64,000 nucleotides of DNA from Rhynchobatus australiae. Taxonomy: Eukaryota. A program made the translations under genes and the position numbers. Location of the stretch: positions 6,852,038 to 6,916,037 of the forward strand of contig JAUZTB010000135.1 in assembly GCA_034780895.1 (NCBI GenBank). Reading direction: 5' to 3'. Shown here one piece after another: positions 640 to 64,000 of this stretch (within the stretch, counting starts at the first letter, position 1; every line of letters begins with the position of its first letter). Below the pieces are notes generated by a model. That model searched no databases and was not told the DNA's origin. It saw only the letters and a program-made list of their open reading frames with translations.

Positions 640-722
640 AACGAAAATACCGCAGATGCTGGAAATCTGAAGCAGAAAGTGCCAAACAGATCAGACAGGA
701 TTCGTGAAGAGAGAAATAGAGA
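640..722 (-). mobile_element. Penelope-derived short repeat fragment
   Basis: CGCAGATGCTGGAAATCTGAAGCAGAAAGTGC...CAGACAGGATTCGTGAAGAGAGAAA matches the GCAGATGCTGGAATCT motif found at 1969, 4049 and 44440. Confidence 0.6.
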
Positions 723-1129
723 TAAATTTTTAAGTATGAATGGTGATTACTTTTAATACTGGGGAAAAAAATATTTATACACAAAATAAAACATTTATAC
801 TCTTACATGGTGTGGGAGTATTCCAGTAGTTATGGCAAAAATACTGAAAATAATCATTGAAAGTATGCAGGGAATTTTTTTAGCCGAAGGAACAATGTTC
901 TGCAGTACCTCTTGTATGGCTGGGAATGGAATTCTGCATTTTAAGATTAATTGCATATCTCCTGATATGGCTTGGTATTAATTTTATTGTTTTTAATGCT
1001 TCTGTGATGCACTTTGTTGTGTTAAAGGTCAGGTATAAATGGCAGATGCTACTGCTGTGCAGATTTGGATTTGAATGGCCTTTCCCCTTTCTGCTTTTGA
1101 AATTCTTATCCTTGTTTTCAGTTCTTGAT

Positions 1130-1430
1130 GCTTTCTCTCCACATCTCTGCAATGTCTTTTTGGGCTAAAATCATCCGGAATACTGGCAGTCCTAAATTCT
1201 GGTCACTTGATTACCCTGAATTTAAATACTCTACCAACAGTGGCTGTTCCTTCAGTTGACAAGACCCAAAGCTCTGGAATTCCCTCTCAGAAAATCTTTA
1301 CTTCTCCTTGTGCTGATGCAGAACTACCCCTTGGCCTCCACGGATATCACTTGACCTGCTGTGTTCCTCCAGCAGTTTGTTCTTTGCTCTACCTTTCCTT
1401 TGTTTAAGATGCTACCTTATTGGTCTTTCT
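1130..1430 (+). mobile_element. L2-clade LINE 3' fragment, interrupted by a Penelope-derived piece
   Basis: TGGCTGTTCCTTCAGTTGACAAGACCCAAAGCTCTGGAATTCCCTC...TTTAAGATGCT resembles the L2 3' end and is homologous to 24074-24275. Confidence 0.55.
1303..1388 (+). mobile_element. Penelope-derived short repeat with partial hammerhead core
   Basis: CTGATGCAG followed by CCTTGGCCTCCACGGATATCACTTGACCTGCTGTGTTCCTCCAGCAGTTTG, same family as 46800-46900. Confidence 0.6.
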
Positions 1431-1963
1431 GCTCTGATATTTGCAAGTGTGGCTAAATTTTATATGATTGATGATGCTGGTCTGAATCCATGAACCTTAG
1501 GGATGCAGTTGTTGTTGTTTAGTTCAATCAGCAGTTTAAGGACATTTAAAACAACACATCATTGAAACTTGCAGTTGCAATGAGGCCACATGACCTGTTG
1601 TATTTTACTGGTTCTTTGAGGGAGCAGTTACACTTATCTAGCATCCTTCTTCAGATCCCAATCAACTTATCTTTCAAGTATTTATGGAATCAAATTCCAT
1701 CACCTTTTCAGGTGGAGTGTCCAGATCACAGTTATTTTGAGTGGAAAAAAAATCTCCTGATCTCTGTTTTTGTTCTTTTTACATTGGTTTTTATTCTAGG
1801 TCCACTGGTGATTAAACCAAGTGAGCAAAGGGAAAAGATTTTCTTATTAAAACCTTTGTTCATGATATTGAAAATCTGCATCAAAACATCTTTTAGCTTT
1901 TACTGTTTGAAGAACAACCTTTAAGCTTTCCATCTTCTCTTCATAACTAAAGACCTATAGTAG

Positions 1964-2077
1964 AAGACGGCAGATGCTGGAATCTAGAACAAAAATAAAA
2001 CACTGGATGAACTGAACGAGTCGGGCAGCAACAAGTGTATGTCAACATTTTGGCTTGAGACCCTGCATCAGGTCTGG
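1964..2077 (-). mobile_element. Penelope-derived short repeat with decayed hammerhead motif
   Basis: GCAGATGCTGGAATCTAG...CTGGATGAACTGAACGAGTCGGGCAGCA; minus strand 2075-2041 reads AGAC-CTGATGCA-GGGTCTCAAGCC-AAAATGTT-GAC. Confidence 0.7.
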
Positions 2078-2440: not shown

Positions 2441-3449
2441 TTTGCTTTTATATAATATTCCTGTCTTTATAAACTTAGATAACGCATAAACAGCATTCTG
2501 CTTCACACTTCTCTGCACTAAGCTCAATTTTCTTGTCTTATGACAGCTTGGAAGTGGGTACTATGGAAAACTTTTTGAATGGCAAAGGCACCACTTCAAA
2601 CAAAGGTAGATGAAGGCAGTAATGAGAAGAGAAAATACAAATCTTCCCATTGTTCATTGCATTTTTTTTCACGTTTGGCCTTTGATTACTTTCTCATGAG
2701 CACAAATTCCCATGTACTGATGTAGTTTCAACACATGACGAACGGCAGCCAATTCACTCAGGAGTGTTAATTGCAACTTTTATTTTTCCATAGCTATCTG
2801 GCACAACAAAACAGTTTAGAAATTATTGCTGTGACTTCAAAGAACAGAACTCTGTCTGAGATTTGCAAATCTCTTTCAGGAGAGCTATTAGTTGGACAAC
2901 ACATTGTTGGTGAAATACAAGAGTAGCTTTGAAAGATTTCTGCACATGGGTTTGTGGTAATTTAATCAGATATTTTGCTAATCCAGACTGAAATTTGCTT
3001 CCTAGTCACTGGATAGAGCAACAAATAGAGCTTTAATCACATATTGATAATAATAAGATTTATTATGGAAAATTAAGGTATTATAGAACATGAGGGATAT
3101 CTCCAAGAGAGAAATGCACAGTATAATGTAATTGTCTCCATGTTGAAATGCTATCTCTGTCAACATCTCCACCCTTATCTGCTTTTGGACTGAGTAAAAG
3201 GTAACAACATTTAAAAGGATAAACAAAAGTAGTTTTTCTCATTGCTTCCTGGGTGGTTGTCCACCTCCTTACAGATGGAATTGCCAATAATTTTGCTTTT
3301 TTATCTATGGTTAAATTTCAGCATTTTCTGTTTTTATTTCAGATTTTCAGCATCTGCAATTTTTTATTTTCAGTTCGGGGAAGTGGTGTTGCGCTGCAGA
3401 GATGGACTGATACACAGTATATGCTTGTGTTCTGTTGTTTGGATCAATA

Positions 3450-4036: not shown

Positions 4037-4166
4037 ATACAAGAGACTGCAGATGCTGGAATCTGGATCAATAAACAATCAGCTGGATGAACTCAGCGGG
4101 TCCAGAAGCATCGGTGGGAGGAAAGGAATTGTTGGAGTTTTGGGTCGAAACCCTGCCTCAGTCCTG
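4037..4166 (-). mobile_element. Penelope-derived short repeat with hammerhead motif
   Basis: ACAAGAGACTGCAGATGCTGGAATCTGG...GAACTCAGCGGGTC; minus strand CTGAGGCA-GGGT-TTCG-ACCC-AAAAC has a perfect stem II. Confidence 0.75.
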
Positions 4167-8318: not shown

Positions 8319-8467
8319 AAAAAAAACTGCTGGAAGAACTCACTGGGTCAAGCAGCATCTGTGGAGGCAAAGGGACAACCTGAAACGTCAACCATCCCTT
8401 TGCCTCCACGGAAGCTGCTTGACCTGCTGAGTTGCTCCTGATTTCAGCGTCTGCAGCCTCTTGTTTT
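8319..8467. mobile_element. Penelope-derived foldback element
   Basis: Arm GGTCAAGCAGCATCTGTGGAGGCAAAGGGA pairs with TCCCTTTGCCTCCACGGAAGCTGCTTGACC; the loop holds ACCTGAAACGTC, the hammerhead 3' half. Confidence 0.8.
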
Positions 8468-10094: not shown

Positions 10095-10210
10095 GAAAAA
10101 GAACCATTGCTGGAGCAACAATCTGCTGAAAGAACTCAGCGGGTTGATCAGCATCCATGGGAGGAAAGGAATTGTTGACGTTTCAGGTTGAAACCCTGCA
10201 TCAGGACTCA
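10095..10210 (-). mobile_element. Penelope-derived short repeat with near-complete minimal hammerhead motif
   Basis: Minus strand 10209-10171: GAGTC-CTGATGCA-GGGTTTCAACCT-GAAACGTC-AACAAT. Confidence 0.8.
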
Positions 10211-12029
10211 AGGATATCAGGACTTACTGGAGCTGCTTTGGCTGTGGTCACATAGGGAGGATTAGAACCAAGCAAGGGCAGCGTGCATTGCTGTGTAATA
10301 TGTGAGTTTTTGGAGTGGGATAGTGTGGTTGNNNNNNNNNNNNNNNNNNNNNNNNNNNNNNNNNNNNNNNNNNNNNNNNNNNNNNNNNNNNNNNNNNNNN
10401 NNNNNNNNNNNNNNNNNNNNNNNNNNNNNNNNNNNNNNNNNNNNNNNNNNCAAAACAATTAGTTTGAGCATTGCAGTTTGTGAACAATAAAGCTGCTTTT
10501 GAAGATATGTGATATTTGGTAAAAGAAACATATCTTTAACAAAGTACTTAATTGAATTTTAAAAAATAGATATTTAAAAAAATAGCATTTAAAAATAGAA
10601 ACCATTTCTAAAATAATTGGAAATGTTTAATTTTTATTGTCTTTGTGCAGATTCCTGGTAACATAACCTTGATATCACCTGCAAATATTTTTAATGAATT
10701 AGGTCATGTCATCAACCATTTTATGTTGGAACATTAGAATTCTGCAACAGTAATTACAATGCAAAGCTGTCTTTGCTCCCAGTAATGGTTACTTTAATAG
10801 ATGATGTGGAAAAATGTTGAGTATTTAATTCTTTGTTCTGAAGAGATTGGGGAAAATGAACGAATGGTTGGACCATTGTGTTTTTTTTTATGTTGGCTGA
10901 TCGTTAAGTTATAAGGCAACCTATATTTGTTGGTCTTTGGTTGATTTAGCTGTTTATAATAAAACAATAATAGCCTGGATATGGCTTTGGAAATCTTGGG
11001 AGATGTGGAATGTAGCAGATTGGAAAGCTCAGACATTAGCCTTTGAGCAGCTGGAAAACTTTTCTTTCCTATCAGCTACTGGCAGTGACTGAATTTGGAA
11101 CAAGAAGATGGGATAAATCTAATTACTGCCTAAGCTCATCAATCTCTGCAGCTGCTGCCTCCTAAATTATCAGTCCATTTATTTTCAGGATAATTTTCTT
11201 GACTTGGACTTTACCATACGGAATGGACAGTGCAGTGGATTTTTTTTTATGTACAGTTGACTAATAATGAAAGGTCATGTTACTTATTATTATAAGCAGT
11301 CTTAGTAATGGTGTTAATTGCTTTTTCATGACATATTTGAGAAAATGTTATTGCTGTTTCACACGAATGGTGCAACATTGTCTATACTTTCTGGCACCAG
11401 TGTTGCTCTTTTCAGAGGCGTGCCAAGAAGTTGACAATCAAAGGCATCCTTTTGCTTTTGTAATTTGGATTATGACTTGCTGTGCAATCTTTAATGTGTC
11501 TTTTAATTAATTGGCTGAAATATNNNNNNNNNNNNNNNNNNNNNNNNNNNNNNNNNNNNNNNNNNNNNNNNNNNNNNNNNNNNNNNNNNNNNNNNNNNNT
11601 GATTATTTTTATAAATACTCCAAATACAGTGTGATCAGATCAAACGTAATTGTTAGGTAAAGTAGGTAGAGCAAGTGCGGATAAATGGATGTACAGATGC
11701 TATTTAATCTTTATTTCAGAATTGGGTCTTCTGCCCTTTTCTGTACAATCCTTTGATTTACACTTATATATAATTCAATAGCTATCTCACTAGAACTATT
11801 CCTTTTTATCACTTTGTTGTCAGTTATAAAATGATTCTATGGATTTGATGATTTCAGAATTCATGACTAATGTGAAATTTATATTAGAACAGATGTCATA
11901 ATGCGCACATATTCAGTCAAATATGCCAGGGGGCATTACATTGTTGAAAGTAATATCCACCTGTTCGTGATGTTGTTACAGGCATCTCTCTCGATTCATA
12001 TCAATTTGAAAGCCAAGAAATAGACTTTA

Positions 12030-12775: not shown

Positions 12776-14054
12776 TACCCATTATCTACCCTACAGTCAA
12801 TCATTTTCACAGTGAATCTGTTTAAATCAATTGGCCATTTTTCTCTTCACTTGGGGTTCTAATTATGGAAAAGGAAATCTTTTCAGAAATTCCTTGCAGT
12901 GCACAAAAAATTCATTTGTTTCAAAATATGAGTAAAAAACATTCAGGTGTGTCCAGAAGTTTGATACATGAATGGTTAACAATACCAGTAGAGCTGTCAT
13001 TACAAGAATAACTTCGTCTAAACTGAGTTAGCATCTTTTTTATCGATGGGAAAAACACATGAGAAGTGATGCAAATAACACATGAAAGCATGACATTTGC
13101 TGTGCTGACTATGGATTTCTTATTTAGGAAAAGAAGGACTATTTCAGTTGACAACATACTGCAGTGTAAATTTAAACCAATGTTTACAAGCCATCCCAGC
13201 CAAATAAAACTTGCCCTAGAAATTCATCCGTGCCATGCCCAAAAGACTCATTAACCTGCCGTTAATGAATTTTGTGCACATTTCTGAGTGACTTCATGCC
13301 AGTCATTAATAAATGACTTTCCATTGCGAGAATCTCGTATACCCTAGTGTTATTTTCTCATTTGTTCAGCTTGCCCAAATGACGTCTGCAGTTGTGCAAT
13401 GTTCAAGATTAATTTCTCTCATGATTTTCTGCCAGGTTGGTCTATATCATATGAACATAGGGTTTAGGAGCAGGGATAGGACACCTTTGAACATCCTCTG
13501 CCATTCAGTAAGATCACAGCTCATCGTATGGTAACCTTCACTACTCATTCCCACCTACTCCTGACACCTTGCATAAAAAGAACCTATCTACAAATACCTT
13601 AAAGATATTCAAAGACTCTGATTTCTTTTCCCCCGCCCCCNNNNNNNNNNNNNNNNNNNNNNNNNNNNNNNNNNNNNNNNNNNNNNNNNNNNNNNNNNNN
13701 NNNNNNNNNNNNNNNNNNNNNNNNNNNNNNNNNNNNNNNNTCCCCCTCCCCCATTTGTCTCCAGCCCCCCAAACGAGTCTCATGTAGGTCCCAAACTGGT
13801 GACAACTTATTTTTAATGCCAGCACTTTCAGGAGTTTTGCAGTGCAGTCAAATGCTGTTAACTCATGTACAGAAGAACTTGTCTTTAACAACAGTGAAGT
13901 CTCAAACTGATTGTTATTTAAAAGATCGGACATGTCTCTCTTGCAATCATGTCTGCTTGGAGTTTGCCTTTCAGACAAACACAAATGTCTGCACTGCTGC
14001 CTGAGTCAAGCTCACCTTCAGAAATATTGCCTCAGGGTTCTTGTAGGCTGTAAT

Positions 14055-14195
14055 AAAACAGAAAAAAATGCTGGAAACATCTAAAGTTCTGATGCAAGCG
14101 ATTGAACTGTAATGCTGTTTCAGATGCTGCCTGACCTACTGAGTGTTTCCAGCATTTCCTGTTTTTATCCAGAATTACCAGTATCTGCAGTAGTT
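14055..14195 (+). mobile_element. Penelope-derived element with inverted 5' piece
   Basis: AAAACAGAAAAAAATGCTGGAAACA is inverted relative to TGTTTCCAGCATTTCCTGTTTT; contains GTTCTGATGCAAG. Confidence 0.65.
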
Positions 14196-15799: not shown

Positions 15800-15968
15800 G
15801 AAGGATATTATTTCATTGGAGGCAATTCAATGAAAATGCATTGGGATGATCCCTACAGATTGTCCTGTGAGGGAAGTCTAAACACGTTGGGACTATTTAC
15901 ATTGAAGAATGAGAGGTGATTTTATTTAAACATATGATTTTATTTAAACATATGATTTTATTTAAACA
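15800..15968 (+). mobile_element. CR1 fragment ending in an 18-bp tandem triplication
   Basis: RLSCEGSLNTLGLFTLKNER in ORF 15632-15919; TGATTTTATTTAAACATA repeated three times at about 15917-15968. Confidence 0.65.
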
Positions 15969-18891: not shown

Positions 18892-19360
18892 AATAACCTG
18901 AGGGCACATACCACCAGACTTAAGAACAGCTTGTACCCCACTGTGGTAAGACTATTGAACAGTTCCCTTATAGGATGAGATGCACCTCACGATCTATGTT
19001 GTTGTGACCTTGCACCTTATTGCACTGCACTTTCTCTGTAGCTGTGACACTTTACTCTATAATGTTGTTGTTTTTACCTGTACTACATCAATGCACTCTG
19101 TACTAACTCAATGTAACTGCACTGTGTAATGAATTGACCNNNNNNNNNNNNNNNNNNNNNNNNNNNNNNNNNNNNNNNNNNNNNNNNNNNNNNNNNNNNN
19201 NNNNNNNNNNNNNNNNNNNNNNNNNNNNNNNNNNNNNNNTTTTTACCTGTACTACATCAATGCACTCTGTACTAACTCAATGTAACTGCACTGTGTAATG
19301 AATTGACCTATACGATTGGTATGCAAGACTAGTTTAGACAATGATAAACCAATACCAATA
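18892..19360 (+). mobile_element. Rex1/Babar LINE 3' end, nested in an opposite-strand copy
   Basis: CATACCACCAGACTTAAGAACAGCTTGTACCCCACTGTGGTAAGACTATTGAA (RTxRLKNSFYPxxIRLLN-like), 3'UTR, and ATAAACCAATACCAATA tail. Confidence 0.85.
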
Positions 19361-19940
19361 TCAGTGAGAAACTTTGTTTTGAGTGCCATCCATACAGGCA
19401 TTGACATCAGTGCATTGAGGTAGTACAAGGGAAAGCAATAACTGAATGCAGAATAAAGTGTTACAGTTACAAAGAAAGTGCAGTGCAGGCAGACAAAAAG
19501 GTGCAAGGCCATAATGAGGTAGTCCGTGAGGTCAAGAGTCCACCTTATCGTACTGGAGAACCATTCAATAGTCTTATAACAGTGGGTAGAAGCCGTCCTT
19601 CAGCCTGGTGGTACATGCTTTCAGGCTTTTGTATCCTCTGCTCAATGGGAGGGGGGAGAAGAGAGAATGGGGTATGTGGGGTTTTTGATATGCTGGCTGC
19701 TTTACTGAGGCAGCGAGAAGTATAGACAGAGTCCATGGAGGGGAGGCTGGCTTTCATGATGTGCTGAGCTGTGTCCACAACTCCGTGATTTCTTGCGGTC
19801 TTGGGCAGAGCAAGAGTGCTTTCTGTGGTGCATCTATAAAAATTGGTGAGTGTCAAAGGGGACATGCCAAATTTCTTTAGCCTCCTGAGGAAGTAGAGGC
19901 CCTGGTGTGCTTTCTTGGCCAAGGCTGGCATCTACGTGGT
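19361..19940 (-). mobile_element. Rex1/Babar LINE 3' region; its tail is displaced to 18866-18891
   Basis: ORF 19545-19931 AKKAHQGLYFLRRLKKFGMSPLTLTNFYRCTTES...IIKxPHTP...TVIRLLN is the Rex1/Babar RT C-terminus. Confidence 0.9.
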
Positions 19941-20959: not shown

Positions 20960-21600
20960 CTGAACTATATGGATTGAAAAAGGGCTATCCAGCCTAACCC
21001 CATCTTCCAGCACTAGGACCAACCCCTGCAGGTCACTGGTCTTCAGGTACACATGCATGTGCTGTTTAACTGTGATGAGGTTTTCTCCCTCCTCCAATCT
21101 TTCAGGGAGTTAGTCCCAGACCTCTACCACACTCTGGTCAAAAATAAATGTCCTCATCTTCCCTCTAATCCTACCAATTACTTTAAATCTATAACCTCTG
21201 GTTTTAGATCCCCTGAGTTAAGGAAGGAAGTCCTTCCTATTTACACCATCAATTCTGCATTCTGTTCTGTTTTTACTACCTTGATGTACTTGTGTATGGC
21301 ATGGTCTGTGTGGATGGCACACAAATAAAGTTTTTCACTGTACCCCAGTACGCATGACAATAATAAACCAATACCAATACCTCAATCAAGTCTCCTCTCA
21401 GCCACTTCTACTTCACAGAAAACAACTTGAGCTGACTGAATCTTTCCCTAATAGCTAATTTTTTTTCGGTTCTGGCAATGTGCTTGTAAAATTCCTCTGC
21501 ATCCTCTTCAGTGCAATCTGATCCTCCTTGTAGTGTAGTGACCAAAACTGTAAGCCCTAAGTTGTGATCCAGCTCATGTTGCAATATAATTCCAGCATAA
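20960..21600 (-). mobile_element. Old CR1 LINE 3' region
   Basis: GTAAAATTCCTCTGCATCCTCTTCAGTGCAATC...TTGTAGTGTAGTGACCAAAACTG is reverse-strand CR1 QFWSPxYKKDxIALERVQRxFT. Confidence 0.7.
21245..21380 (+). mobile_element. Rex1/Babar 3' tail inserted in CR1
   Basis: TTTTCACTGTACCCCAGTACGCATGACAATAATAAACCAATACCAATAC, same tail as 19340-19360. Confidence 0.8.
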
Positions 21601-23103: not shown

Positions 23104-24021
23104 TTGGAATTGGTTTATTGTCACATGTACCAAGGTAGAATGAATTAAACACAATTCATTACACAGTGCATTGAGGTAGTACTAGGTAAAACAATAACAG
23201 AATGCAGAATAAAGTGAACAGCTACAGAGAAAGTATAGTGCAGATAGAAAGTGAGGTGCAAGGTCATATTGTAGATTGTGAGGTCAAGAGTCCATCTTAT
23301 TGTACTAGGGAACTGTTCAATAGTCATAGCAGCAGGATAGAAGCCATCCTTGAGCTGGTGGTACATGCTTTCAGGCTTTTGTATTTTCTGCCCGATGGGA
23401 GAGGGGAGTAGAGAGAATGTCCTGGGTGGGTGGGGTCTTTGATTATGTTGGCTGCTTTACCAAAGCAGTGAGAAGTATAGACAGGGACCATGGAGGGAAG
23501 GCTGGTTTCTGTGAAGTGCTCTGTCCACAACTCTGCAGTTTCTTGTGGTCATGGGCAGAGCAGTTGCTATACCAAGCTGTGGTGCATCTGGATAGGATGC
23601 TTTCTATGGTGCATCAATAAAAATCGGTGAAGGTTGACAGGGACATGCCAAATTTCTTTAGCCTCCTGAGGAAGTAGAGATGATAATGAGCTTTCTTCGC
23701 CGTGGTTGGACCAGGACAGGCTGTTGGTGACATTCATTCCTNNNNNNNNNNNNNNNNNNNNNNNNNNNNNNNNNNNNNNNNNNNNNNNNNNNNNNNNNNN
23801 NNNNNNNNNNNNNNNNNNNNNNNNNNNNNNNNNNNNNNNNNNNNNNNNNNNNNNNNNNNNNNNNNNNNNNNNNNNNNNNNNNNNNNNNNNNNNNNNNNNN
23901 NNNNNNNNNNNNNNNNNNNNNNNNNNNNNNNNNNNNNNNNNNNNNNNTCAATGACCAGCTCTTTTGTTTTGCTGACATTGAGGGAAAGGTTGTTGTCATG
24001 ACACCATGTCACTAGGCTCTC
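23104..24021 (-). mobile_element. Rex1/Babar LINE, 5'-truncated
   Basis: Minus ORFs WCHDNNLSLNVSKTKELVI and YTSHCFGKAANIIKDPTHPGHSLYSPLPSGRKYKSLK; tail TTGGTTTATTGTCACATGTACC near 23110. Confidence 0.92.
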
Positions 24022-27905: not shown

Positions 27906-29264
27906 TCTGTTTTCTGTGCTTATGGCACAGGGAAATGTGCTCCCGTGGCCTTCTTGGGTATAGAATTGCAAAGTGTTTAGAGAAGCAAAAAAAATCAGGT
28001 GGATGTAAAAGTAGTGAAACTGAAGTTTAATAGGGGTGAATTTTAAGCTTGATTTGTTTTCTGACTGTTCTTTCCTTGCGACTAAATTAAAATGGCCAGG
28101 CACTAATATGACAAATGATTCTTCTGGGCAATTTGTCTTGTAACTTGATTCATTGTGTCATTCAGATGTGTTGTTGTTTGACTCAATCTTTTTTTTTGTG
28201 GGGATAGATTCCAACCGTCCACATGATACTAAAACTGTAAAAGTCATGTAAACAGTTCTTTAATTGTGCTGTGCCAGTAGTATTCGGATAGATGGTTGAC
28301 TTATTCAATAAGTNNNNNNNNNNNNNNNNNNNNNNNNNNNNNNNTGATTAATTAGAAGTTGCAGCTTTTTGACCAGAACATGCAGTCGTGCAGGACATGT
28401 ATTTAGCATTATAAAACGATGACTGATTTGCACATTAAATTCTGGAAGTGTAGTTCAAAATTTAATAAGAATTCACATTGTTTTCTACCTTAAGTGCTGA
28501 AAACAAAGACTATTCTAATTATCTTTTATTCAAAGCTGTATTCATTGATATTTATGCCCCATTTACTCATTCTACTGATGTCATTCTCCTTCCTCCCCCC
28601 ACCCTCCACAACCGCTCTGTACACATTCTTATCTTAGAGGTCTCCTTCAGGTCAGGGAGAGCTGTTTCTTTCCTTCTCTGAATGTTCTTGACCTTTTAGA
28701 AACCCCGTAACTCTGCTTGCCTTTGTGTTGGTTTAAAGAGTGAAGTGATTTTACCCAAATTCTCAGCACTGTTCTGCATTTCTCCAAGAGGTTCGTCTCT
28801 TTTCCCATGAATTTCCAAGAACTATCATGTTCTCAGTGCCAATTAACAATCTCGATTGACCTCATTTGTGGAGAAGTGTTGCAGGACTCATGCTAAGACA
28901 GCAACATTCCTTTTCCAGATAGCAACGCAGTAAACTGTTGAGTGGGTGTCTTTTGAAACACATAATGTTATTACTAGCTATGGTCCTTTGGAGAATTATT
29001 TTCAGCATGCTTTTCAAAAGTAAATTTTGTCCTTTTTTATGGCAATCACATTGTACAGTGATCAAACTTCTTTAATAACCTACATAATTTTTGGTTGATT
29101 AAATTAATGGAACATGCCAAGATAAATGATCTGGTTGGAAGTGATGGCTTTATGACTTATTGCNNNNNNNNNNNNNNNNNNNNNNNNNNNNNNNNNNNNN
29201 NNNNNNNNNNNNNNNNNNNNNNNNNNNNNNNNNNNNNNNNNNNNNNNNNNNNNNNNNNNNNNNG

Positions 29265-29604
29265 AGATAAAAGAAAAAAAATGGTAGAAATAAGAGGCTA
29301 GGAAAGGGAAGAAGAGAAGATGCATGGTGGGGGTGGGTGGGGAGTGCGGTTTGTGGGGAAGGGGGCGGGGAGAGAATTCAATATTCATGCTATTAGGCTG
29401 CAAGGTTCCAAGACAGAAAATGAGGTGCCATTCCTCAAGTTTCTGCTTGGAATTCTCCTGGCAGTGGAGGAGGCTGAGGACTGTCATTATCAGTGATAGT
29501 GTGGGAGGGTTGGAGTTGAAGTGACTGGCAACAGGGAGATGCAGATCGCGGTCTCGGACAGAGCTCAGGTGTTCAGCGAAACGGTCACCTAGTCTGCGTT
29601 TCAC
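29265..29604 (-). mobile_element. Penelope-like element, GIY-YIG endonuclease C-terminal fragment plus 3' UTR
   Basis: KRRLGDRFAEHLSSVRDRDLHLPVASHFNS...LLHCQENSKQKLEEWHLIFCLGTLQPNSMNIEFS has the R, H, H, E and N residues of the PLE GIY-YIG domain. Confidence 0.92.
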
Positions 29605-32600
29605 TGTGGTTAGCTACCTGGTTACAGGTTATAGGTTTATCTTGAATAATTGTATTCAAACACTACCGCATGGTATTCTCTGATCTCCAGCCACTGCTCC
29701 GACAGCCTTTGACAGCTCAGAGTTATTTAAAAAGTTAATGTGGAACCAAATAATTAAAAAAAATAAATAACTAAAAATATGATAAACTTGGTCTCAAGAA
29801 TTAATCAAAATATATTATACAGTGAAATAAAGAAAAATAAATAAAATATCTGAACTCAAATTTACCTTTGCAAAGATGTTTTGTAGGTCCATTCAAGTTA
29901 ATGTATTTGTCACCTGTACACAAACTAAGGCTGGCATAAAGTGGATGGGTCACTTGCACTTTGTATCTCGTCACTCAGCTCAGCATAATCTGGAACTTTT
30001 GTTGGACTCAGCTGTTCAATCTGAGGGGATCAGCGATACTGCTGTTAGATCTCCAGCACATTTCCATGGATGTGGCTAGCAAAGTGCATAGACGTGGCTA
30101 ACAAAGCTGCATTGAACATTGCTGCTCACTTCAAGATTTGATCCAGCCCATGGTTTTGTAATAACCTTTTTTGTAATTTATACCATGTTTATGAACAAGG
30201 CCATTGAGATGGATTTGGTACGTAACAGATATAAAATTCAAAACAGAATGCATATGCCAGATAATGCAGAATCCATTAATACTCTTTTATTGTACCATTT
30301 GCAGCTTTATATAGTAGTTTAAAATTGTTGCCCTACCTTGTGAATGTATTGTCACTGAGGTAATTTAGTGCTACAAAGCTCTAGTTAGATCTGAAGTTCT
30401 TTACATGGGACAGTAAAATTTTATTGGAATCCCTAAATTTACTAAAAATGAAAACAAATCAATCTTATGAGTCCTAGCAGACAAAAAATTAAACTTTACA
30501 ATGCAATATTTAAAGATTTATGACGTCTGTCTGCTTTTTATTCCACTTTGCTAAAAAAATAGTTACCTCACACTCTCTGTCCCTCCTGCAGATTGTATTG
30601 GTATCTTACTTTTCCCCTATTGTCCAGGTCAGATATTTACCTAAACCTTGTCTGTCTAAAAAAGATGGCTCTTTTTATTTTACAAACTTGTAAATTCAGT
30701 CCTTTTCATTAGAAATGTTCAGTTGCATGTTAAGAAGTTATTTTTGCAAACTATTTTCCCTCCAGTGGCCCAACATTTTTGACACATTTCTACTCATTTA
30801 AGAAATGATTTACTTTTAAACTGTCTGCCAGCATTTCAAGTACCATTAACTTAGATTGACTAAATGTACAAGTTTTGTTTTCATAATATTCATAGTTAGT
30901 TAGTGGGACATATACGGAAAATTTGGACTAATCCAAGGTGTTCTTTTTCTTCATTTTGGTTTCTATTCTTTTTCAATGACATTTTCTTATAGACCAAACA
31001 AATCTCTTAAAATATGAACTCTTTCATTTTAAGCATTGGCATATATTAACATTAAATGATAATTAAATGGACTACGCTGTAATGTTTTGTTAATCACATT
31101 CAGATAGTGTAACCTGACTGTTTCAAACTCCTTATGCCCGATGGATTTCTTTCTCATAACTGTACCTTAATCTAGCACATTATGCATTCCAATAGACTTC
31201 ACTTTCAGCTGTCTATAGTATACTATATTACTATGTTGTTCATGGTTATTATTTTGAAATGAGGATTTCCTCGGCTCCCATCCACTCTCTATCCCCAGCC
31301 CTCACTAATCGCCCCACCCACCTCACCTTAACATCCCTTTCCATTTACCATATTTCCCTTCCCAATCTCCCCTTGGATGCCCACTCATTCCCTGTACTCC
31401 ATCTAATTCTTCACTCTCCCTATTTGGGTTGGGGACAGGGTTGTATTCCAGATGTGTAAAAAGACACTGTCACCACACCATCCAACAGCTAGACTATTCC
31501 AGTTGTACAGTGAGGAATCATTTGATTTCTTGAGCATGTGTTGTAGCTGCGATTGTTAGTTTTCTCTCTTGGGAAGAATTCACATTAATTAAGCTCTTTT
31601 CCATTAATGCTCTCTGTAAAGAAGATCCTTGTTCTAGAAAGCACTGAGCAATGAAATAACATGGCAATGTAAAATATCGAAGTTCCAAAATGGAAACTTT
31701 GACTAACTAACACCTCTTATAGAATGCAACAGTTTTGCTTGGATTCTGTAACCAGTTTTACAGCAGTTGTAAATGGTAGAAATTTTTGGCTTCTTGATTA
31801 TGACTGTTCATTTTATTGATAACATTCTTACGTTACGTATTGAACTTATATAGAAACATTGTGGAGTATACTTCATATGCTAAACACTCTGATTTCATGT
31901 TACAAACTGAAAAATAGACATGACAATATATCTGCTGAAAAAAAATAACATTGGTCCTTTCTGAATATGAATTATCTGTCCTTGATTCAAGGCCATTTGA
32001 TTATTTGTTCCTGTACTTTCTGATGTGCTACACACATATATCATTAAGGGCATTAATTTATAAAATTCCTGCAAAGTGGATTTATTGAAAGGTATTTTTG
32101 TTTTACTAAACTCTTGTAATTCAAGTTGATTGATACCAATAATTTTATTAGCAATCATTCTTGGTTTCTCAAATGCATAATGTGAGTAAAATACTTAAAG
32201 TTATCAATTTTTGTAATAATATGCGAACTAGAATGCAATTAAGATATTTTATTGCCTTTCTAGTCTGTCTTGCATGTAATGTAACTTGTGGGGTATGACA
32301 GTTTTGAGTACATTAAGTTTTATTTTCATTTTAAGGCGATGCATCTCAATCTTGGTGTGGATCCATTTCTACCGAGCTAACTAATCTGCATTCATCACAT
32401 TCATTTTTGATTGTCTAAGCTGAAATTAATCATAAATTCATGTTGAATCCAGGTTAAATATTACATGAAATTTCAATTCATAACACCACACCCACCCATT
32501 TACAGTTTTTTGTTCTAGAGTGTGTATGTAAAGTAGCTCCACAGTTTTGATGATCATGTATTCTGTGACTTCTCCTCATAAAACTGGCAAAGTCCTTTTA

Positions 32601-33158: not shown

Positions 33159-33325
33159 GAGCTGAAGGTTTAAAGGAAAGGCTATTTACATTTTCAGCAG
33201 ACCAAACTGTTTGAAGAAAATGGAAGTAAACTTACAAAAGAAAGAAAAGAAAGAATTAGAAAAAAATTGGACATTGTTTATTTACAGACTGAAGGAAAGA
33301 AACCGCTGGGAACTTGAAGGAATAG

Positions 33326-33451
33326 AGAAGTAAAGGACCGCAGATGCGGCAATCCAGATGAAAAACACTATGGTGCTGGAGGAACTCAGCAGGCCAGGCA
33401 GCATCCGTGGAGCCTGGCCTGCTGAGTTCCTCCAGCATTGTAGTGCTTTTC
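33326..33451. mobile_element. Penelope-derived hairpin element with 15-bp TSD
   Basis: About 39-bp inverted arms at 33361-33399 and 33412-33450; AACTTGAAGGAATAG at 33311-33325 and 33452-33466. Confidence 0.9.
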
Positions 33452-34954
33452 AACTTGAAGGAATAGTACAATTCAAAGTAATTTTGGATGTGTTGCTTGT
33501 TCTCACCTTCGTGAGATTGGTTATCATCCAATATTATAAACTCTAACTGCAAAGCAATGCAAGACTGTTGCCTCTCAGAGTTGGGTGTGGAATAGACATG
33601 GCCCCTGCCAGGTTGTATTTATTCTGGAGCCAATACTTATTTAATGGCTGTGCTGTGATAAAAGTCAAACTTAGTTTTCAATGGATATTGACTCCTGCCT
33701 ATAACATTAACTAACTTGCCAGAACACCAGGCAAGAATAAAAATTTAAACATTTAAGTTAATATCGGGCTCTTAACTTGTACAATTTTCCCCCTTCCGTA
33801 GGGGATTCTCAGTGTACTGCTGATGTGGGTTCATTGCAAATGTCTTCACACCAACTCCAAAGTTTCAGGATGAATGCACTCAGTGAGTAATGAAAGCAAG
33901 CGAGTGTGAATGACACTTGAAGCTGGAATCTGAGATTCATGCTTCTGTGGGTTGAGAGTTCAACACTGTTGCAATAGATACTGCATACCTCAACCTGATT
34001 AACTTTGGAAAGTCAGAAACAAGGACGTATCCTTAACCACATTTAATTACTGAATTAGATTGACATCCTTTAAGAAAACATAGCTAACTATTCAAACAAA
34101 AGCTTGTATAGGTGTAAAATGAGCATTATTTAGGAATTACAACTCTGTAGGTTGTATGAACTGACTGGTAGGTGGTCAGAAACTACTCATTCTATAAAAT
34201 TTTCTGCACAACCTTTTGGTTCATTGAGCATTAAAGAGTTGCATGAATTGAAAGGGTTATGGCATTATCAAGATTGTGATGACCCAGGGCCTGCAGGCAG
34301 AGTAAGTGTTATTCTGAAAAAAACATCTATCGCAGAGTGGCTGAGTTTATCTGATTAAGGACCAGAAGAAAATCAGATTATTTGTTATTACATGTAATGG
34401 ACCTTCAGGAAAGAAATTGTCTGTGACAAGCATTAAAATTCAAACAGACTTGGTGTTGGCATGTAGTACAGTGGGGTTGAAAAGGTGTGGTGGTTTTGTA
34501 AATTTTTTCAGGAAAGACTTTATGCATTCAGAAACAGTGATGCAAAAGTAGTTGTCAGGTGCTTTTTACAGTCTATCCCTGTGGCCAGGAAAATTGTTAG
34601 CCTCTATTAAGATTCTAATCCATTTGAAATTCCTTCTTGCATTCCCATTGTGCTCTTTTACACTTTGACCGAGACAAGGTCACGGGTACTGAGCAAGTTC
34701 AGCCAGCTCCAGGTGCTGAAAGTAGCTGGAAACTAGATATGATGTTGGGCGTCCAGATAATTCCGTATTGTTAGTAACTAGGCTTATCATTATCATAACG
34801 CCTTTAACTGTTTATCGAGACCTTTGTTTTAGGAATAGTGGATCTTTAGCAGGGAATTTGCTTGCAACCTCCCAGGCAATCAGCAAGCTCACCCTGTGTC
34901 GGGTCTGAAGAAACTAATTCTTAATTGTGTTCGTGCAAAGTTAACCACTTTCAT

Positions 34955-35285
34955 TGCCCATTTTTTATTTTGTCATGGGATGTCAGCATCACTGGTGTCT
35001 CTAATTGGCACCCTCCACCTGCAGAGTAGGGGTCAACCACGTTGGTGAACACAGAGTTGCACTGGCCAGACCCAGTAAAGATGGCACATTTCCTTCCCTA
35101 AAGAACAACAGAAAACCATATGAGTTTTCATGACAATTCAGTGTTTTCATGGTTGTTATTATTAGCTTTTTATTCCAGCTTTATTTTATTACTTGAATTT
35201 ACATTCCCTAGTTGCCCTGGTGGAATTTGAACTCCTGTTTCTGGATTAATGGCACAGTTTCCTAAACTAACATGCCACTTTACCA
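34955..35285 (-). mobile_element. Old L2-tailed SINE
   Basis: CATGGGATGTCAGCATCACTGG...GGCCAGACCCAGTAAAGATGGCACATTTCCTTCCCTAAAG...TTTTTATTCCAG...GGAATTTGAACTC. Confidence 0.7.
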
Positions 35286-44429: not shown

Positions 44430-44575
44430 CATAAGAGATTACAGATGCTGGAATCTGGAGCAAAAAACAAACTGCGGGATAAACTCAGTGGGTCAGGCAG
44501 CATCTGAAGAGGGAAAAGAACAGTTGATGTTTCAATTCGAGACCCTGGACTGAAAGAGTAGAGGGGAGATAGACA
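44430..44575 (-). mobile_element. Penelope-derived short repeat (hammerhead core deleted)
   Basis: ACAGATGCTGGAATCTGGAGCAAAAAACAAACTGC...AACTCAGTGGGTCAGGCAGCATCTG...GATGTTTCAATTCGAGACCCTG. Confidence 0.75.
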
Positions 44576-44744
44576 CTATTGAGTGTGATTGATGCTGTAA
44601 CTAACATTATTTCTGAGTCTTCAGCATTAGAAAATGCTGGTTCTTCTGTGGCTGAACAGCAAGTGTTGTTTTTGGAACAATTTGATAGAAAATTTCATTG
44701 GTGACAAACTTTGAGTGTTGCATTACTGTTGATGTCAGAGAGGC

Positions 44745-45295: not shown

Positions 45296-45303
45296 AGAAG
45301 ATT

Positions 45304-45655
45304 AACACCTCATTCCACCTGGGTAGTTGGGTAGTCTACAATCCATCAGCATAAACATTGAATTCTCCAATTTCGGGCAGCCTGCTCCTCCTCTGTCCCC
45401 TTCTTTCTGAGCTCCCCAGGCCCTCTCGTGCATGCCCTTCCTTCTTTCCAAACCACTCCTTGCCATCTCCCAATTTCTTTTCCCCACCTACTCTATCTGC
45501 GATTATCCACTTGCTTCTCTCACTGGGTTCCCTCTTTCTCCTCCCTGCTCCCCTCCCCACCATTTCCATCTGCTCATCATGCGTCTCTCATTTGGTCCCT
45601 CTTCGCCTTCCTTTCTCTTCGGATTCCATCCTCTGCAGCCCTTTGTTGCCTGCAC
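45304..45655 (+). mobile_element. Penelope-like element 3' end (GIY-YIG tail plus pyrimidine-rich UTR)
   Basis: CACCTCATTCCACCTGGGTAG...CTACAATCCATCAGCATAAACATTGAATTCTCCAATTTC encodes HLI..LG.LQ..SINIEFSNF, as in the 29265-29604 copy. Confidence 0.8.
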
Positions 45656-46634: not shown

Positions 46635-46900
46635 AACTCTTTCCAGCTATCATCCACCAGTTTTGAGACAAATTTCCCCCTCCCTCTCCCCCTTCCAGCT
46701 CCATCTGTCCGTCATATTCCACCTTACTTTGTTCCACCTATCACCTACCAGCCCCTGTCCCACCACTTCCTCTCACTTCTGTACTGGCTATCTTGCCTCT
46801 ACACTCTTAGTCCTGATGCAGGCGCTTGAAACATCGGCCATCCCTTTGCCTCCACAGATGCTACTTGACCTGCTGAGCTCTTCCAGCAATTTGTTTTTCG
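46635..46900 (+). mobile_element. Penelope-like element 3' UTR/terminal repeat with hammerhead motif
   Basis: C-rich UTR followed by AGTC-CTGATGCA-GGCGCTT-GAAACATC-GGCC and CCACAGATGCTACTTGACCTGCTGAGCTCTTCCAGCA. Confidence 0.8.
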
Positions 46901-48789
46901 TCCCAACTTTTATATACTATGCCCAGCCGATCAAGGCAAACATGCCACATACCTTCTTCACCACCATATCTCCCTGTGTTGCTGCTTAGACAAGCTTGAT
47001 GCTGGACAAAGAGCTCTATCAGTTATGACTATCTCAAGCACAAATGATGATATGATGGTTGTGACTGGCACCAAAGCACCCTGAAATGTATGCAAAATTG
47101 CTTTACCCCAATCTATAAATGATGGCCATGTGCAATTGCAGCAAGTAGATTAGTCGGATTGGCTTGTCCTTCTCCTTGGTTCACTCATCCCTTGCCATAG
47201 ACTCATTGAGGAACTGCTAACATCAAAATGATTGGAAGGGCAATTCAAAGTAAACCCCATCTATTCAGAAAGACGAAAGAAGTTGGAATGACTTTCCCAA
47301 TATACACATTCCACTTCTTCACCATTATGGAAGAGAAACTGCAGAGATGAGATGCACTAAGATTGAGGTGTTACTACAGAAGTGACAGGCACGTGCTGCT
47401 GATGTACTTCTGTTTGTTTAATTGCATTTGCTTTAAGTTCCAGTGATTACCGCACATTGCTGTTGGGAAGATTGGATTAGAAAGCGAGTAAACAATTGTC
47501 CATGAATCCCACTTAAATGTGACACAAGAAATTTCTTGATGTGTAAATGTCATTTCCAAGCCCCTTCATTGAGACTCATCTGNNNNNNNNNNNNNNNNNN
47601 NNNNNNNNNNNNNNNNNNNNNNNNNNNNNNNNNNNNNNNNNNNNNNNNNNNNNNNNNNNNNNNNNNNNNNNNNNNNNNNNNNGACTCATCTGAAAGGATC
47701 CTAATGACTTCTAATGAATAGCAGCAGTGAAAATAATAATGAACTGAATATGTGTTAACTGACAGTACACCGAAGAAAACATTTTCATGCAAAACTGTTA
47801 GGGGTACTTCTCAAAGGATTATGCCTCTATGCTGTTACCTTCTGTTGATTTGACGTGAATGGATTAGTAGTGTTTTCACAATGTAATTTTAGTAAGATTG
47901 ATGATTATTGCTGGGATAATTTTTGTTAGCCTTGCGAGCTCTTTTTTTCCAAAATGTCAGTGTTCCTTGAGCAAATTTAAACTTAATTGGTAAAAAAAAT
48001 TCCTTTGAAGATCCCAGCAGACCCACATAAGGTCTGAATGAGCTAGTAAAGAATAACTTGGCAACAGCTTAAACAGTTTGTTTCTTAAGCCTCCTTTAAA
48101 TTGTAATTAGTTCAAGCTCAGAAAATAGTTGAAAACTCCTGACAATGGATTAGAGTCTAGGTTTTATGGAGGGAAAGAGGACAAAGCTTTTGCTGAATTC
48201 AGCCAAGGTTATTCAATACTTCTGGAAAGTAGCCTTGCCTCTCTGCAGTTTGTATCTACACTGCACCAAATTCTGTTTGCTCATCTTACTGAGCTATGGT
48301 TCATGGTCCTCAGATTTAATTCTTTTGTTTTTTTTAAATTCCTCCACAATCTTCTGTAACCTTCTTCACACTTTTGGTTTTCCTGAATGCACTATTCCCT
48401 TGACAAAAGGCATCAGTGCTTTTCTGTACCTTTGCTACTGGTGGCTGCACATGACTCCTAACCCTCTGCCCAAGCCTTTGATCACTCCATCTCTGGCTCA
48501 GTGTTTTGTGCACATCCTTACACGATGATTCACTTCTAAGCTTTTCTGAGAATTTAATAGATGCAGTATGTCAGAATTGATTGCACTGCTGACAATTACT
48601 TCTGAAGTAAGAAGGAAAATCGAGAAGGGTACACTGTGAATAGAAGTTTCTCTATTTAACTGTTTACCTTGAATACAAAATCAAAAAATAAACTCAGGGA
48701 GACGTGTGTACTTCTAAACTTCTTGTGTTAGTGTTTACTGACCAGGCAAGTGGTAAGTAAACCAACATGAGGCATAAACCCACATTTTT

Positions 48790-54770: not shown

Positions 54771-54776
54771 ATGACT

Positions 54777-55775: not shown

Positions 55776-56796
55776 GACCACAAGGATACCAGGTTGTAGG
55801 AAAACATGCTATTTGGTTCACCAAGGGTGTTTAGAGAAGCAGCACTTCTATTCTTACCCAGTTTATATATAACTCCAGATTTGCAGTAATAGAAAAACTA
55901 CGGCACAATTCAGGCCCTTTGGCCCACAAAACTGAAACTTCTGGAAACACTCAGCAGGTCAGGCAGCATGTGATGTAACATAGTTAGTGATCACATAAGT
56001 TTTTAGAAGCTAAGGTGGGTTCACCTTATGGCTAGAGGAAGGTGCACAGTGGGAGGACTGCAGTGAATATATCATACAGCAATTTCATTCAGAAATTCAC
56101 CAAATTTATATAATAGCCTTCAACTGAATATATAAATAATCTTTGCTTCTTTAATCCAATTACCTAGGCTCCCAAAATAGTGCACTCTGAAAGACTTAAG
56201 TGGTATCAAAAATACTCTTCAAATTAATGCCTTAGATCAAAGTAAAATTGGTAAATTGGTTTATTATTGTCACGTGTACTGAGGTATCGTGAAAATCTTT
56301 GTTTTTCATGCCATCCATACAGATCATTTCATTACAACAGTGCATTGAGGTAGTACAAGGGAAAAGAGTAACAGAATGCAGAATAAAGTGTTACAGTTAC
56401 AGAGAAAGTGCAGTGCAGGAAGACAATAAGATGGAAGGCCATAATGAGGCAAATTGTGAGGCCAAGAGTGGATGTGATGCTTATAATTTTAAATATATAT
56501 AACTTTTATTTTTTTGCTTTGTTTTCTCAATTCTTTCACACTCTCAGGACAGAATTGTAAATGCTGCCCAAATGATCTGCTATAAAAGATAGAAGAGGGG
56601 CGCAGTGTGCAAGTGATATGGAGTTGTTCAAATTTCACCACAGCAACTGTGGAATTTACATAGAGTTTCTTAACAAAATCTAGACCACAAGGATGCAAGG
56701 TTGCAGGAAAACATGCCATTTGGTTCACCAAGGGTGATTAGGGAAGCAGCACTTCTTTTCTTACCCAGTTTATATATAACTCCAGATTTGCAGTAA
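55776..56796 (+). repeat. 114-bp dispersed direct duplication (55776-55889 and 56683-56796)
   Basis: Ungapped manual alignment gives 7 mismatches in 114 nt. Confidence 0.9.
56248..56470 (-). mobile_element. Rex1/Babar 3' UTR
   Basis: TTGGTTTATTATTGTCACGTGTACTGAGGTA...GCATTGAGGTAGTACAAGG...CAGAATGCAGAATAAAGTG, as at 19361 and 23104. Confidence 0.88.
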
Positions 56797-57129
56797 CATA
56801 AAGTAAAAACACTGANNNNNNNNNNNNNNNNNNNNNNNNNNNNNNNTCTATGGAAAGAGAAACAAAATTAACATGTTAGATCGAAGACACTTGATCAGAA
56901 CTGACTGTTCTGACTTGTAACAGCGTAATTAGTGCCTGCCCACTATCTGAGATAGACTAATGAATGATTCAGTTGTATCAAACTGCTACACACTGTCAAA
57001 TTCCTGAAACTACAGGACTATATCTTCATCACAAGGAATACAGCAATAAAAATACTGCTGACCACTCTGTCTGAAGGGCAGTTAGGGATGAACAATGAAC
57101 GTTTGTCTTGCAATGATTGACGGAAAAGG

Positions 57130-62810: not shown

Positions 62811-64000
62811 TTCTCATCTCTACTGTGGTGAAGGATGTGGAAGCTAGTGAGTTAAGGAGAGGGAAATGTAATATCTTGGAGTGTATAAACATTACAAACA
62901 AGAGAAGTTTTGGAGGTCTTGAGATGCATAAAGGTGCAGAAATCCCCAAGGCCTGACCAGGTGTATCCTAGGATGTTATGGGAAGCAAGTGAAGAGATTG
63001 AGGGGGTCTTGGCGGAGACTTTGTATCTTCATTAGCAACAGGTGAAGTACCAGAAGATTGGAGGCCAGCCAGTGTTGTGCCTTAAGTAAAGAGGGGCAAC
63101 AAGGATAAGCCAGGGACTGCAGTCCGGTGAACCTTATAATGGTGGGAAAGTTATTGGAAAGGATTCTGCGGCGCAGGATTTACTTGCAGCTGGAGAATAT
63201 TTAGGGATAGTCAGCATGGCTTTGTGCATGAAAAGTCATGTCTCACAAATTTGATTTTGTTTCTTGAAGAGGTGACCCAGAGGATTGATGAGGGCAGGCC
63301 AATAGACAACTTCTACGTGGACTTCAGCAAGGCTTTTGACAAGATACCCCATGGCAGGCTGGTCTGGATGGTTANNNNNNNNNNNNNNNGGGATGAGCTA
63401 GCCAGTTGGATACAGAATTGGTTTGGTAGTAGGAGGCAGAGACTGGGAGTGGAGGGTTGTTTTTCCTACTCGAAGCCTATGACCAGTGGTGTGCCACAGG
63501 GATCTGTGCTAGGTCCTTTGTTTTTTTTGTCAAATATATTAATGATTCGGATGAATATGCAGGTGGTTGTGATTGGCAAATTTGCAGATGACACCAAAAT
63601 TGGTGGAATCAATACACAAAAAGTGCTGGAGGAACTTAGCAGGTCAGGCAGCATCTATGGAGGGAAATAAACAGTCGACATTCATCAGGACTGGAAAGGA
63701 AGGGGACAGAAGGGAAAGTTGGCAAGTGAAGGGCAAATGGAATTTAACTCGGACAAGTATAAAGTGACACATTTTGGGAAGTTTAACCAGGACAGGAATG
63801 GCAGGGCCCTCGGGGAATGTTGTTGAACAGAGAGACTTTTGAGTACAAGTGCATAGTTTCCTTAAAATGGGAGCGCAGTTAGACCGGGTGGTAACGAAGC
63901 CATAGAGCATGCTTGCCTTCATCAGCTGAGGCAATGAGTGGAAGATCTGGGATGTCATGTTACAGTCGTACAAAATGTTGGCTAGGCCACCCTTGGAGTA
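62811..64000 (+). mobile_element. CR1 LINE ORF2 reverse transcriptase region (frameshifted, runs off the window)
   Basis: KSCLTNLILFLEEVTQRIDEGRPIDNFYVDFSKAFDKIPHGRL...SGVPQGSVLGPLFF...KFADDTKIGG in ORF 63224-63670; upstream KSPRPDQVYPRML. Confidence 0.95.
63611..63712 (-). mobile_element. Penelope-derived short repeat inserted in the CR1 RT
   Basis: ACACAAAAAGTGCTGGAGGAACTTAGCAGGTCAGGCAGCATCTATGGAGGGAAATAAACAGTCGACATTCATCAGGACTGG. Confidence 0.85.

Follow-up and report, generated by a model that had tools for sequence, protein, structure and literature searches.

Decayed minimal hammerhead motifs dispersed over a 64-kb stretch are probably truncated ends of a cartilaginous-fish Penelope-like element

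Results

A dispersed repeat carries hammerhead parts

The window, that is, the whole stretch of 64,000 nt that was analysed, is AT-rich with a CpG observed/expected ratio of 0.22 and holds 4963 N across 35 runs. LINE remnants are abundant, one of them matching RVT_1 of Pfam at 63140-63667 (E 1e-10), and clear host exons were not seen, LINE remnants only, as judged by amino-acid composition and by Pfam on 10 ORFs. The motif at 10172-10209(-), where the letters quoted in a preliminary description of this DNA are present, belongs to a dispersed repeat of 17 segments in 14 insertion units. Ten of the units contain hammerhead parts, and self-BLAST and profile searches trace the repeat 60-97 nt past the hammerhead. 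The units and two remnants of Penelope-like elements (PLEs) are as follows, with hammerhead positions numbered after the papers cited below.

10172..10209, minus strand: index hammerhead relic with the stem I 5' strand, C9 plus an extra A, a 4-bp stem II, GAAA, an intact ACGU and GUC
10112..10212, minus strand: whole index unit, hammerhead plus about 60-65 nt downstream; tailless; 5' end 8 nt before C3
4040..4166, minus strand: copy with perfect stem II, G12>A, U16.1>C and C9; tailed; 5' end at stem I
1962..2076, minus strand: copy with C9 and G12>A; tailed; 5' end at stem I
44430..44578, minus strand: copy with a 6-nt core deletion and about 30 nt of pyrimidine-rich sequence upstream; tailed; 14-bp direct repeat with 1 mismatch
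46635..46905, plus strand: longest copy, with at least 173 nt of C/T-rich sequence upstream (cut by an N gap); tailless
63605..63712, minus strand: copy with A9 and a perfect 5-bp stem I, stem II and GAAA deleted; lies within an RT remnant
56847..56904, minus strand: most diverged hammerhead-bearing copy (G8>C, G12>A, A14>C), with a 31-N gap; weak when taken alone
1308..1395, plus strand: copy with the 5' core half (C9), stem II through GUC deleted; tailless
8319..8466, both strands: head-to-head inverted unit; plus arm from 8376 begins in stem II and is tailed, minus arm 8319-8375 is tailless
14050..14195, both strands: head-to-head inverted unit; plus arm has the 5' core half (C9) and a tail, short minus arm 14050-14081 is tailless
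33326..33451, both strands: head-to-head inverted unit lacking a hammerhead; only the minus arm is tailed (about 34 nt)
55926..55972, minus strand: truncated segment downstream of the hammerhead; tailless
644..724, minus strand: diverged truncated segment; tailed; profile E 7e-4
3316..3369, plus strand: short truncated segment, mostly tail; profile E 8e-3
29264..29613, minus strand: C-terminal part of a PLE GIY-YIG endonuclease (29371-29613), then a C/T-rich tract running into a 100-N gap
45297..45650, plus strand: second GIY-YIG remnant, the last ~26 codons (weak), with a C/T-rich tract and a 25-nt tail match at 45622-45647; no hammerhead

The five further copies and three half-motifs named in the preliminary description are all present; its count of about nine copies holds for those listed and misses the core-deleted 44430-44578(-) copy and five segments without a hammerhead. 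Outside the three inversions, eight units lie on the minus strand and three on the plus strand, and the nearest pair of same-strand copies is 2.1 kb apart. A profile built from 13 segments returned 16 matches in the window at E<0.01, three of them outside the model; among the controls, 10 block-shuffled windows reached E 1.4 at best and the reversed window E 3.6. When members were left out one at a time, 12 of the 13 were recovered, the exception being 56866-56903. The seventeenth segment, the short inverted arm 14050-14081, was added through pairwise alignment. With 14 units in 59 kb of called sequence, the density in this single window is one per 4.2 kb, or 2.7% of bases, and the copies diverge from the in-window consensus by 6-33% (mean 16%) outside CpG sites. 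A 120-nt direct repeat (55776-55895 and 56683-56802, 93% identical) lies directly 3' of the copies at 55970 and 56866, which may be one insertion, locally duplicated or assembled twice, so that the unit count would be 13.

Four candidates were rejected as family copies: 49085(-) is part of another repeat, and 28868(+), 22984(+) and 37299(-) have E>0.3. The sequence CTGATGCAG occurs 5 times in the window against 0.78 expected, a count reached in none of 100 shuffles, and four of the five matches fall within family members; the fifth is inside a repeat at 35161-35267 and 49005-49111. This separate two-copy repeat (78%) has a B-box-like motif, and we take it to be SINE-like.

The motif probably derives from a minimal type I hammerhead and decayed at CpG sites

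Across the copies, C3, U4, G5 and A6 are retained in 8/8, G8 in 7/8, A13 in 7/7, A14 in 6/7, A15.1 in 7/7, U16.1 in 7/8, G10.1 in 6/7 and H17, as C or U, in 8/8, and all eight have the extra nucleotide before G10.1. From C3 to H17 the majority states are correct and correctly spaced at C3 U4 G5 A6 N7 G8 and at G12 A13 A14 A15.1 U16.1 H17, and they equal the published consensus of minimal hammerheads, as given in Fig S3 of PMC4209133, everywhere except at position 9. Pooled, the copies yield a stem I of 3-5 bp, a stem II of 4 bp, ACGU and GUC, which supports the minimal type I hammerhead ancestry that had been proposed. The 4131 copy does have the perfect GGGU/UUCG/ACCC stem II reported for it. 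The 5-bp stem I occurs in the 63672 copy and the 4-bp stem II in the 10171 and 4131 copies; no copy has both together.

Decay of the copies by CpG loss, as the preliminary description had suggested, is borne out. Four dinucleotides (loop II, 11.1-G12, 15.2-16.2 and 17-1.1) show a mixture of CG, CA and TG, indicating that they were ancestral CpGs; over these sites CA is found 11 times, TG 8, CG 7, TA 2 and CT 1 of 29. The palindrome dinucleotide 15.2-16.2 is CG in 2, CA in 2, TG in 3 and CT in 1 of 8 copies, and G12 is kept in only 4/7, its three losses being due to CpG decay. Over the repeat, CpG sites diverge by 43% versus 16% at other sites. Restoring the CpGs yields the G10.1-C11.1 pair, the ACGU palindrome and the C2.1-G1.1 pair. 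Non-CpG core positions vary in 2/61 cells versus 169/865 downstream (p=0.0005), a comparison that is partly circular since some copies are core-anchored and that counts CpG columns downstream.

The reconstructed motif in isolation has a predicted minimum-energy fold with 3 stem I and 4 stem II pairs, and adding the downstream sequence lowers the predicted probability of the two stems to <=0.03. Fold z-scores are unremarkable (+0.1 to -1.6). In the automatic alignment 68.8% of cells are paired as proposed, versus 17.7-41% in registers slid by 1-3 columns. The covariation of stems I and II that had been put forward as a check was not significant with 12 dead copies, which give little power: 60 of 500 shuffles did as well by score and 378 of 500 by double changes, and independent decay after insertion would not yield covariation. 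RNAalifold on 6 copies returned a weak downstream hairpin only, with double changes in 0/8 pairs. A descriptor of the minimal type I hammerhead, another suggested check, had 0 strict matches in the window and at five stringencies never rose clearly above 8 shuffles; with one mismatch each allowed in core, stem I and stem II, it had 2 matches (the index copy and an unrelated site at 62234) versus 0-1 in the 8 shuffles. Sites at 62234(+), 49217(-) and 6399(-) were rejected as hammerheads because they are chance-level descriptor matches. Rfam yielded no hammerhead match, whether searched with the whole window at E<=5 or with just the index region at E<=10, and its hairpin matches at 8338 and 33379 were set aside as inverted units.

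No copy in the window is intact. G12>A occurs in three copies, four have large deletions in the motif and one begins inside stem II; the 46808-46840 hammerhead of the longest copy has C9, a shortened stem II and a broken palindrome. Since CpG deamination struck four CpGs at key positions, the present copies almost certainly no longer cut. In the index copy, C3 is at 10204, G12 at 10184 and C17 at 10177 of the minus strand, with the putative cut between 10177 and 10176. Its core, CUGAUGC-A, has C9, and stem I retains just 2 of its 5 pairs, the core-adjacent 2.1-1.1 pair being C-A. That one or more copies, the index copy for instance, are active or host-domesticated ribozymes is highly improbable. 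Domesticated intronic hammerheads are known in amniotes, as described in passages of PMC6155905, and the index copy retains ACGU, all four pairs of stem II and 10 of its 11 core positions, but its 2.1-1.1 pair is broken, its predicted stem probabilities are <=0.23, helix III is absent, its closest same-strand partners are 6 kb and 34 kb off and also damaged, and a host exon was not found in the window.

Two further features of single copies were observed. At 10212-10227(-), 16 nt upstream of the index copy, stem I and the beginning of the core recur as a 9-nt duplicate that may be an aborted extra copy. The tail of the 4040-4166(-) copy has complementarity to two partners, a stretch 20 nt beyond the cut and the core in its C9 form; both pairings appear among the predicted folds, and a conformational switch is possible in these models.

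Most copies carry cytosine at core position 9

The preliminary description had given the core as CUGAnGA-type, which does not apply to most copies: in 6/8, the index copy included, the core reads CUGAUGCA or CUGAGGCA with C in place of A9, and A is present in two. An A follows C9, and the extra position is A in 8/8. The C9 copies are only 57-83% alike downstream, so the C they have in common predates their insertions, and by this comparison C9 is not a product of decay. With an A after the C in every copy, the core has two possible readings: A9>C with an additional A, or a bulged C ahead of A9, the latter giving a shifted register that the alignment permits.

Position 9 is A in all 56 representative PLE hammerheads by the text extracted from Fig S3 of PMC4209133, and the passages of PMC3088659 on core matching count A9 as a core position where any change disqualified a match and name no position-9 variant. 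In the literature searched, no description of an A9C hammerhead core was found, only studies of the extra nucleotide after A9. The constancy of A9 elsewhere would fit a C9 lineage that had lost ribozyme activity before amplifying, so that the motif was a dead passenger or was retained for another role, in RT binding, coding or splicing. This account is plausible, though we do not favour it. Available passages of two sources point the same way, since hammerhead mutants left insertion of the lizard element PAc unaffected in vitro (PMC11167929) and Naiads amplify without canonical hammerheads (PMC8557442), as does the single reading frame that stays open over the 128-nt consensus. Against it, the rest of the core is near-invariant in C9 copies that differ so much downstream, and the A after C in all eight copies would permit the shifted register. 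We read the C9 core as probably weakly active or protein-assisted and still retained, rather than dead.

A wider proposal, which we put forward tentatively and regard as unlikely, is that the dominant subfamilies of a very abundant shark/ray Penelope family have a working C9 (or bulged-C) hammerhead and that many copies arise from a short template starting at stem I, beside a splice-acceptor-like site. If this were true, CUGANGA descriptors would overlook the C9 core and a large vertebrate ribozyme class would have gone uncounted. A family amplified with both A9 and C9 cores would be a natural test of the role of PLE hammerheads in transposition: if C9 is dead, cleavage is dispensable in vivo; if it cuts, a supposedly forbidden core change is tolerated and descriptor counts are too low.

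Ends, tails and inversions of the insertions

The 3' ends of the segments fall into two classes, about 52-80 and 88-97 nt past the cut, the tailed ones being those at 88-97 nt. The tail (~30 nt) is found in 8/17 segments, and of the untailed segments one is cut by a gap and one keeps 8 nt of the tail; where a target-site duplication (TSD) fixes the ends, the tail measures about 34 nt. Three of the 14 units are head-to-head inversions, each with the tail on a single arm. The 5' ends span from >170 nt upstream of the core to 70 nt downstream. TSDs of 15 and 14 bp flank 2/14 units: a perfect 15-bp duplication surrounds 33326-33451 (33311-33325 and 33452-33466; p=0.002), and a 14-bp duplication with 1 mismatch surrounds 44430-44578 (44416-44429 and 44579-44592; p=0.005 versus 1500 random site pairs). 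The other 12 units are without a significant TSD. At one of these, the 63672 copy breaks up an RT remnant at 63140-63823(+) that is presumably CR1-like; judged by eye, the site lacks about 19 RT codons, which points to a target deletion rather than a duplication.

5' truncation, adjacent inverted copies, an optional tail of 30-40 bp that is often one-sided, and TSDs of variable length are typical PLE features in passages of PMC8557442 and PMC3846280. The tail of Anolis PAc has been traced to two internal RT start sites, the main one lying 85-92 nt past the hammerhead cut by subtraction from values given in PMC11167929, and the agreement of the two 3' ends here with this in vitro geometry in a lizard element of another clade suggests a general mechanism. 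It is very unlikely that the repeat is a tRNA-derived SINE, a MITE or a LINE end with a chance likeness to a hammerhead. Such an origin would be compatible with the missing direct join to a PLE ORF, with descriptor and Rfam matches that are not above chance and with the long hairpins formed by two units. However, a tRNA gene was not found, a repeated 3' tail is absent, and the B-box motif has 21 matches versus 21.8 expected, none in stem II and one downstream in the index copy only. Asymmetric inversions, TSDs of 14-15 bp and an optional tail are PLE-like, and 10 of 11 core positions correctly spaced together with both stems are not a chance layout for a repeat consensus.

The preliminary description had envisaged a very large non-autonomous family. 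A separate family of this kind was not demonstrated, since variable 5' ends, inversions and an optional tail suit truncated ends of an autonomous element; four 5' ends do cluster at stem I. These ends could reflect a self-standing, retrozyme- or SINE-like monomer of about 130 nt with its start at stem I, mobilized in trans by the PLE protein; this would keep the Penelope origin and differ only in the template. We consider this unlikely. The four copies begin 5-8 nt before C3 and have non-pyrimidine flanks, and 4/10 non-inverted 5' ends lie within 5 nt of one another (p 0.004-0.035 by the range assumed, a post hoc test in which three positions are approximate or gap-limited); monomer-rich, pLTR-related retrozyme families are reported in vertebrates, including one chondrichthyan, in the preprint text of bioRxiv 10.64898/2026.07.22.740005. 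On the other hand, the four copies do not group in a tree of 12 downstream segments (0/9 branches well supported; the 56866 copy omitted as too short), three other copies reach 20-170 nt further upstream, seven segments begin downstream of the hammerhead, and no tandem array was found in the window. A fixed 5' end could also arise by RT run-off at the 5' end of a pLTR-initiated transcript or by pausing at stem I, so a short stem I template, run-off and stem pausing would each give the cluster. Single motifs are interpreted as truncated PLEs in passages of PMC4209133, and here the copies are explained no less well by truncated ends than by a separate non-autonomous family.

In the three upstream-extended copies, a pyrimidine tract with YAG stands exactly at the stem I 5' strand (46800-46810(+), 44548-44570(-) and 63689-63712(-)), and most tailed copies have a second T-rich tract with YAG just before the tail. 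By sequence, these would be two acceptor-like sites, at the stem I 5' strand and before the tail. In D. virilis, the intron end maps to the helix I 5' end.

Remnants of Penelope-like ORFs

The GIY-YIG C-terminus at 29371-29613(-) matches 292 proteins at E<=0.001 and has E 6e-23 to a whale shark RT/GIY-YIG protein. Its relatives carry RT, a Cys linker and GIY-YIG, and the closest named ones come from Hypanus, Mobula, Rhincodon and Rhinoraja (stingray, devil ray, whale shark and skate), which makes a cartilaginous fish the probable origin of this DNA. The CX2-5CXXC linker is present in the closest relatives and is not contained in the remnant itself. Pfam assigned 0 families to the window remnant and GIY-YIG to 7/12 relatives, two of which exceeded the curated cut-off. 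Among the named protein models from rays, several are chimeras that join host genes to the ORF of this element. No hammerhead was seen beyond the 100-N gap that follows the 29264-29613(-) remnant. The second remnant, 45297-45374(+), is weak (tblastn E 0.004-0.065, profile E 2.1) and ranks first of 1864 windows in a comparison with DNA from the end of the first remnant. Prokaryotic genome scans for related DNA returned 0 DNA-motif matches and 134 pattern matches, none confirmed.

The tie to Penelope that the preliminary description had drawn is supported for the origin, better through the insertion architecture and a tail match than through the C-rich tract. The tract before the 46808 copy resembles the GIY-YIG-linked tracts in composition only (pyrimidine 0.75 vs 0.77), and alignments between the putative UTRs were not significant (p 0.06, the value for the proposed link, 0.80 and 0.32). 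The repeat tail, in contrast, matches 45622-45647 in ORF-sense orientation at 18/24 positions, with a shuffle p of 0.002 for two of the three tails tried and 0.04 for the third, this being one of 10 comparisons; the site ranks among true family members for 2/5 tails tried. It may be either an internal copy of the tail in the tract or a fragment that lost its hammerhead by deletion, and either would tie the repeat to the ORF. No hammerhead copy contiguous with a PLE ORF remnant exists in this assembly, in which both long tracts end in N gaps, and a search for long protein relatives scored 0/40 and 0/61 candidates. The insertion pattern is stronger evidence for Penelope than the ORF link.

A single reading frame runs uninterrupted through hammerhead, spacer and tail (42 codons of the 128-nt consensus, for example at 44430-44552(-)) and holds an ATG about 20 nt past the cut. 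It could be an ORF start as in other PLEs or arise by chance; a comparison with 150 relatives gave no convincing match.

Proposed origin of the repeat

We propose that the repeats are probably dead, 5'-truncated 3' ends (pseudo-LTRs, pLTRs) of a cartilaginous-fish PLE, presumably of Neptune type. The parent would have had an RT/GIY-YIG ORF, a C/T-rich tract, the minimal hammerhead, about 65-70 nt with a small hairpin, and an optional tail of ~30 nt. The PLE endonuclease would nick host DNA and the RT initiate inside the RNA about 65 or about 95 nt past the hammerhead cut; the 3' ends are measured in the window, and the initiation is taken from the Anolis element. Copying would mostly halt after 50-300 nt, at times adding an inverted second copy, and such an early halt with an inverted copy would account for the short length of the units, for tails on one side, for head-to-head inversions and for duplications of 14-15 bp.

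The ancestral hammerhead, without a helix III of its own, would have needed to pair through ACGU with a second motif of a tandem transcript in order to cut after GUC. Cleavage of this dimeric kind, with low activity, is described in passages on other PLEs, and assistance to a PLE hammerhead by protein in PMC11167929; by analogy, the PLE protein probably aided ancestral cleavage here. After insertion, CpG deamination would have struck loop II, 11.1-G12, the palindrome and 17-1.1.

Comparison with known systems

PLE hammerheads have been described in lamprey, teleosts, coelacanth, frog and reptiles. Those at the pLTRs of metazoan PLEs in the passages of Cervera and de la Pena (2014; PMC4209133) share with the copies here the type I architecture without helix III, the palindromic 15.2-16.2, the extra nucleotide 9/10.1, the G10.1-C11.1 pair and the short stem I, as well as their occurrence mostly as single motifs of truncated PLEs with some opposite-strand pairs; they differ in that most window copies have C9 and all are damaged. 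Chondrichthyans are not among the species of Table S1 and Fig S3 of that paper.

Poseidon PAc of Anolis (Frangieh 2024; PMC11167929) resembles the repeat, in the passages on its insertions, in having the hammerhead followed by about 90 nt to the insertion end and two alternative ends that make the tail optional. However, PAc belongs to a different PLE clade, whereas the relatives of the window remnants have the Cys linker of Neptune/Nematis, and the PAc ORF begins at stem II, a start not assigned for the window element. Neptune-clade PLEs, as covered in passages of Craig 2021 (PMC8557442), share the C-terminal GIY-YIG and the Cys-rich linker seen in the relatives, together with 5' truncation, inverted 5' copies and a one-sided tail. 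The Neptune placement depends on this motif in relatives rather than on an RT tree; the window is without the element's RT, and by the linker Nematis is also possible. In the supplement to PMC8557442, no shark or ray genus was found among the five looked for.

Animal non-LTR retrozymes, in the preprint text cited above, are likewise non-coding, pLTR-related and dispersed as monomers with a type I hammerhead, but they are defined by tandem units with complete hammerheads, and the window copies are neither tandem nor complete. No description of this shark/ray PLE hammerhead family was found in the literature searched; the supplements of the 2026 preprint may cover it. As hammerheads at Penelope ends are established, the finding adds a lineage rather than a concept.

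Other repeats in the window

The 3' end of another LINE is present in fragments at 19404-19931, 23163-23709, 56334-56469, 18937-19058 and 21323-21372, several of them adjacent and inverted, and the tail of its ORF matches Pfam ALKBH8_N (E 8e-10). Tandem repeats lie beside assembly gaps at 15917-15968 (an 18-nt unit repeated 2.9 times, 100%) and 54776-54847 (a 36-nt unit repeated twice).
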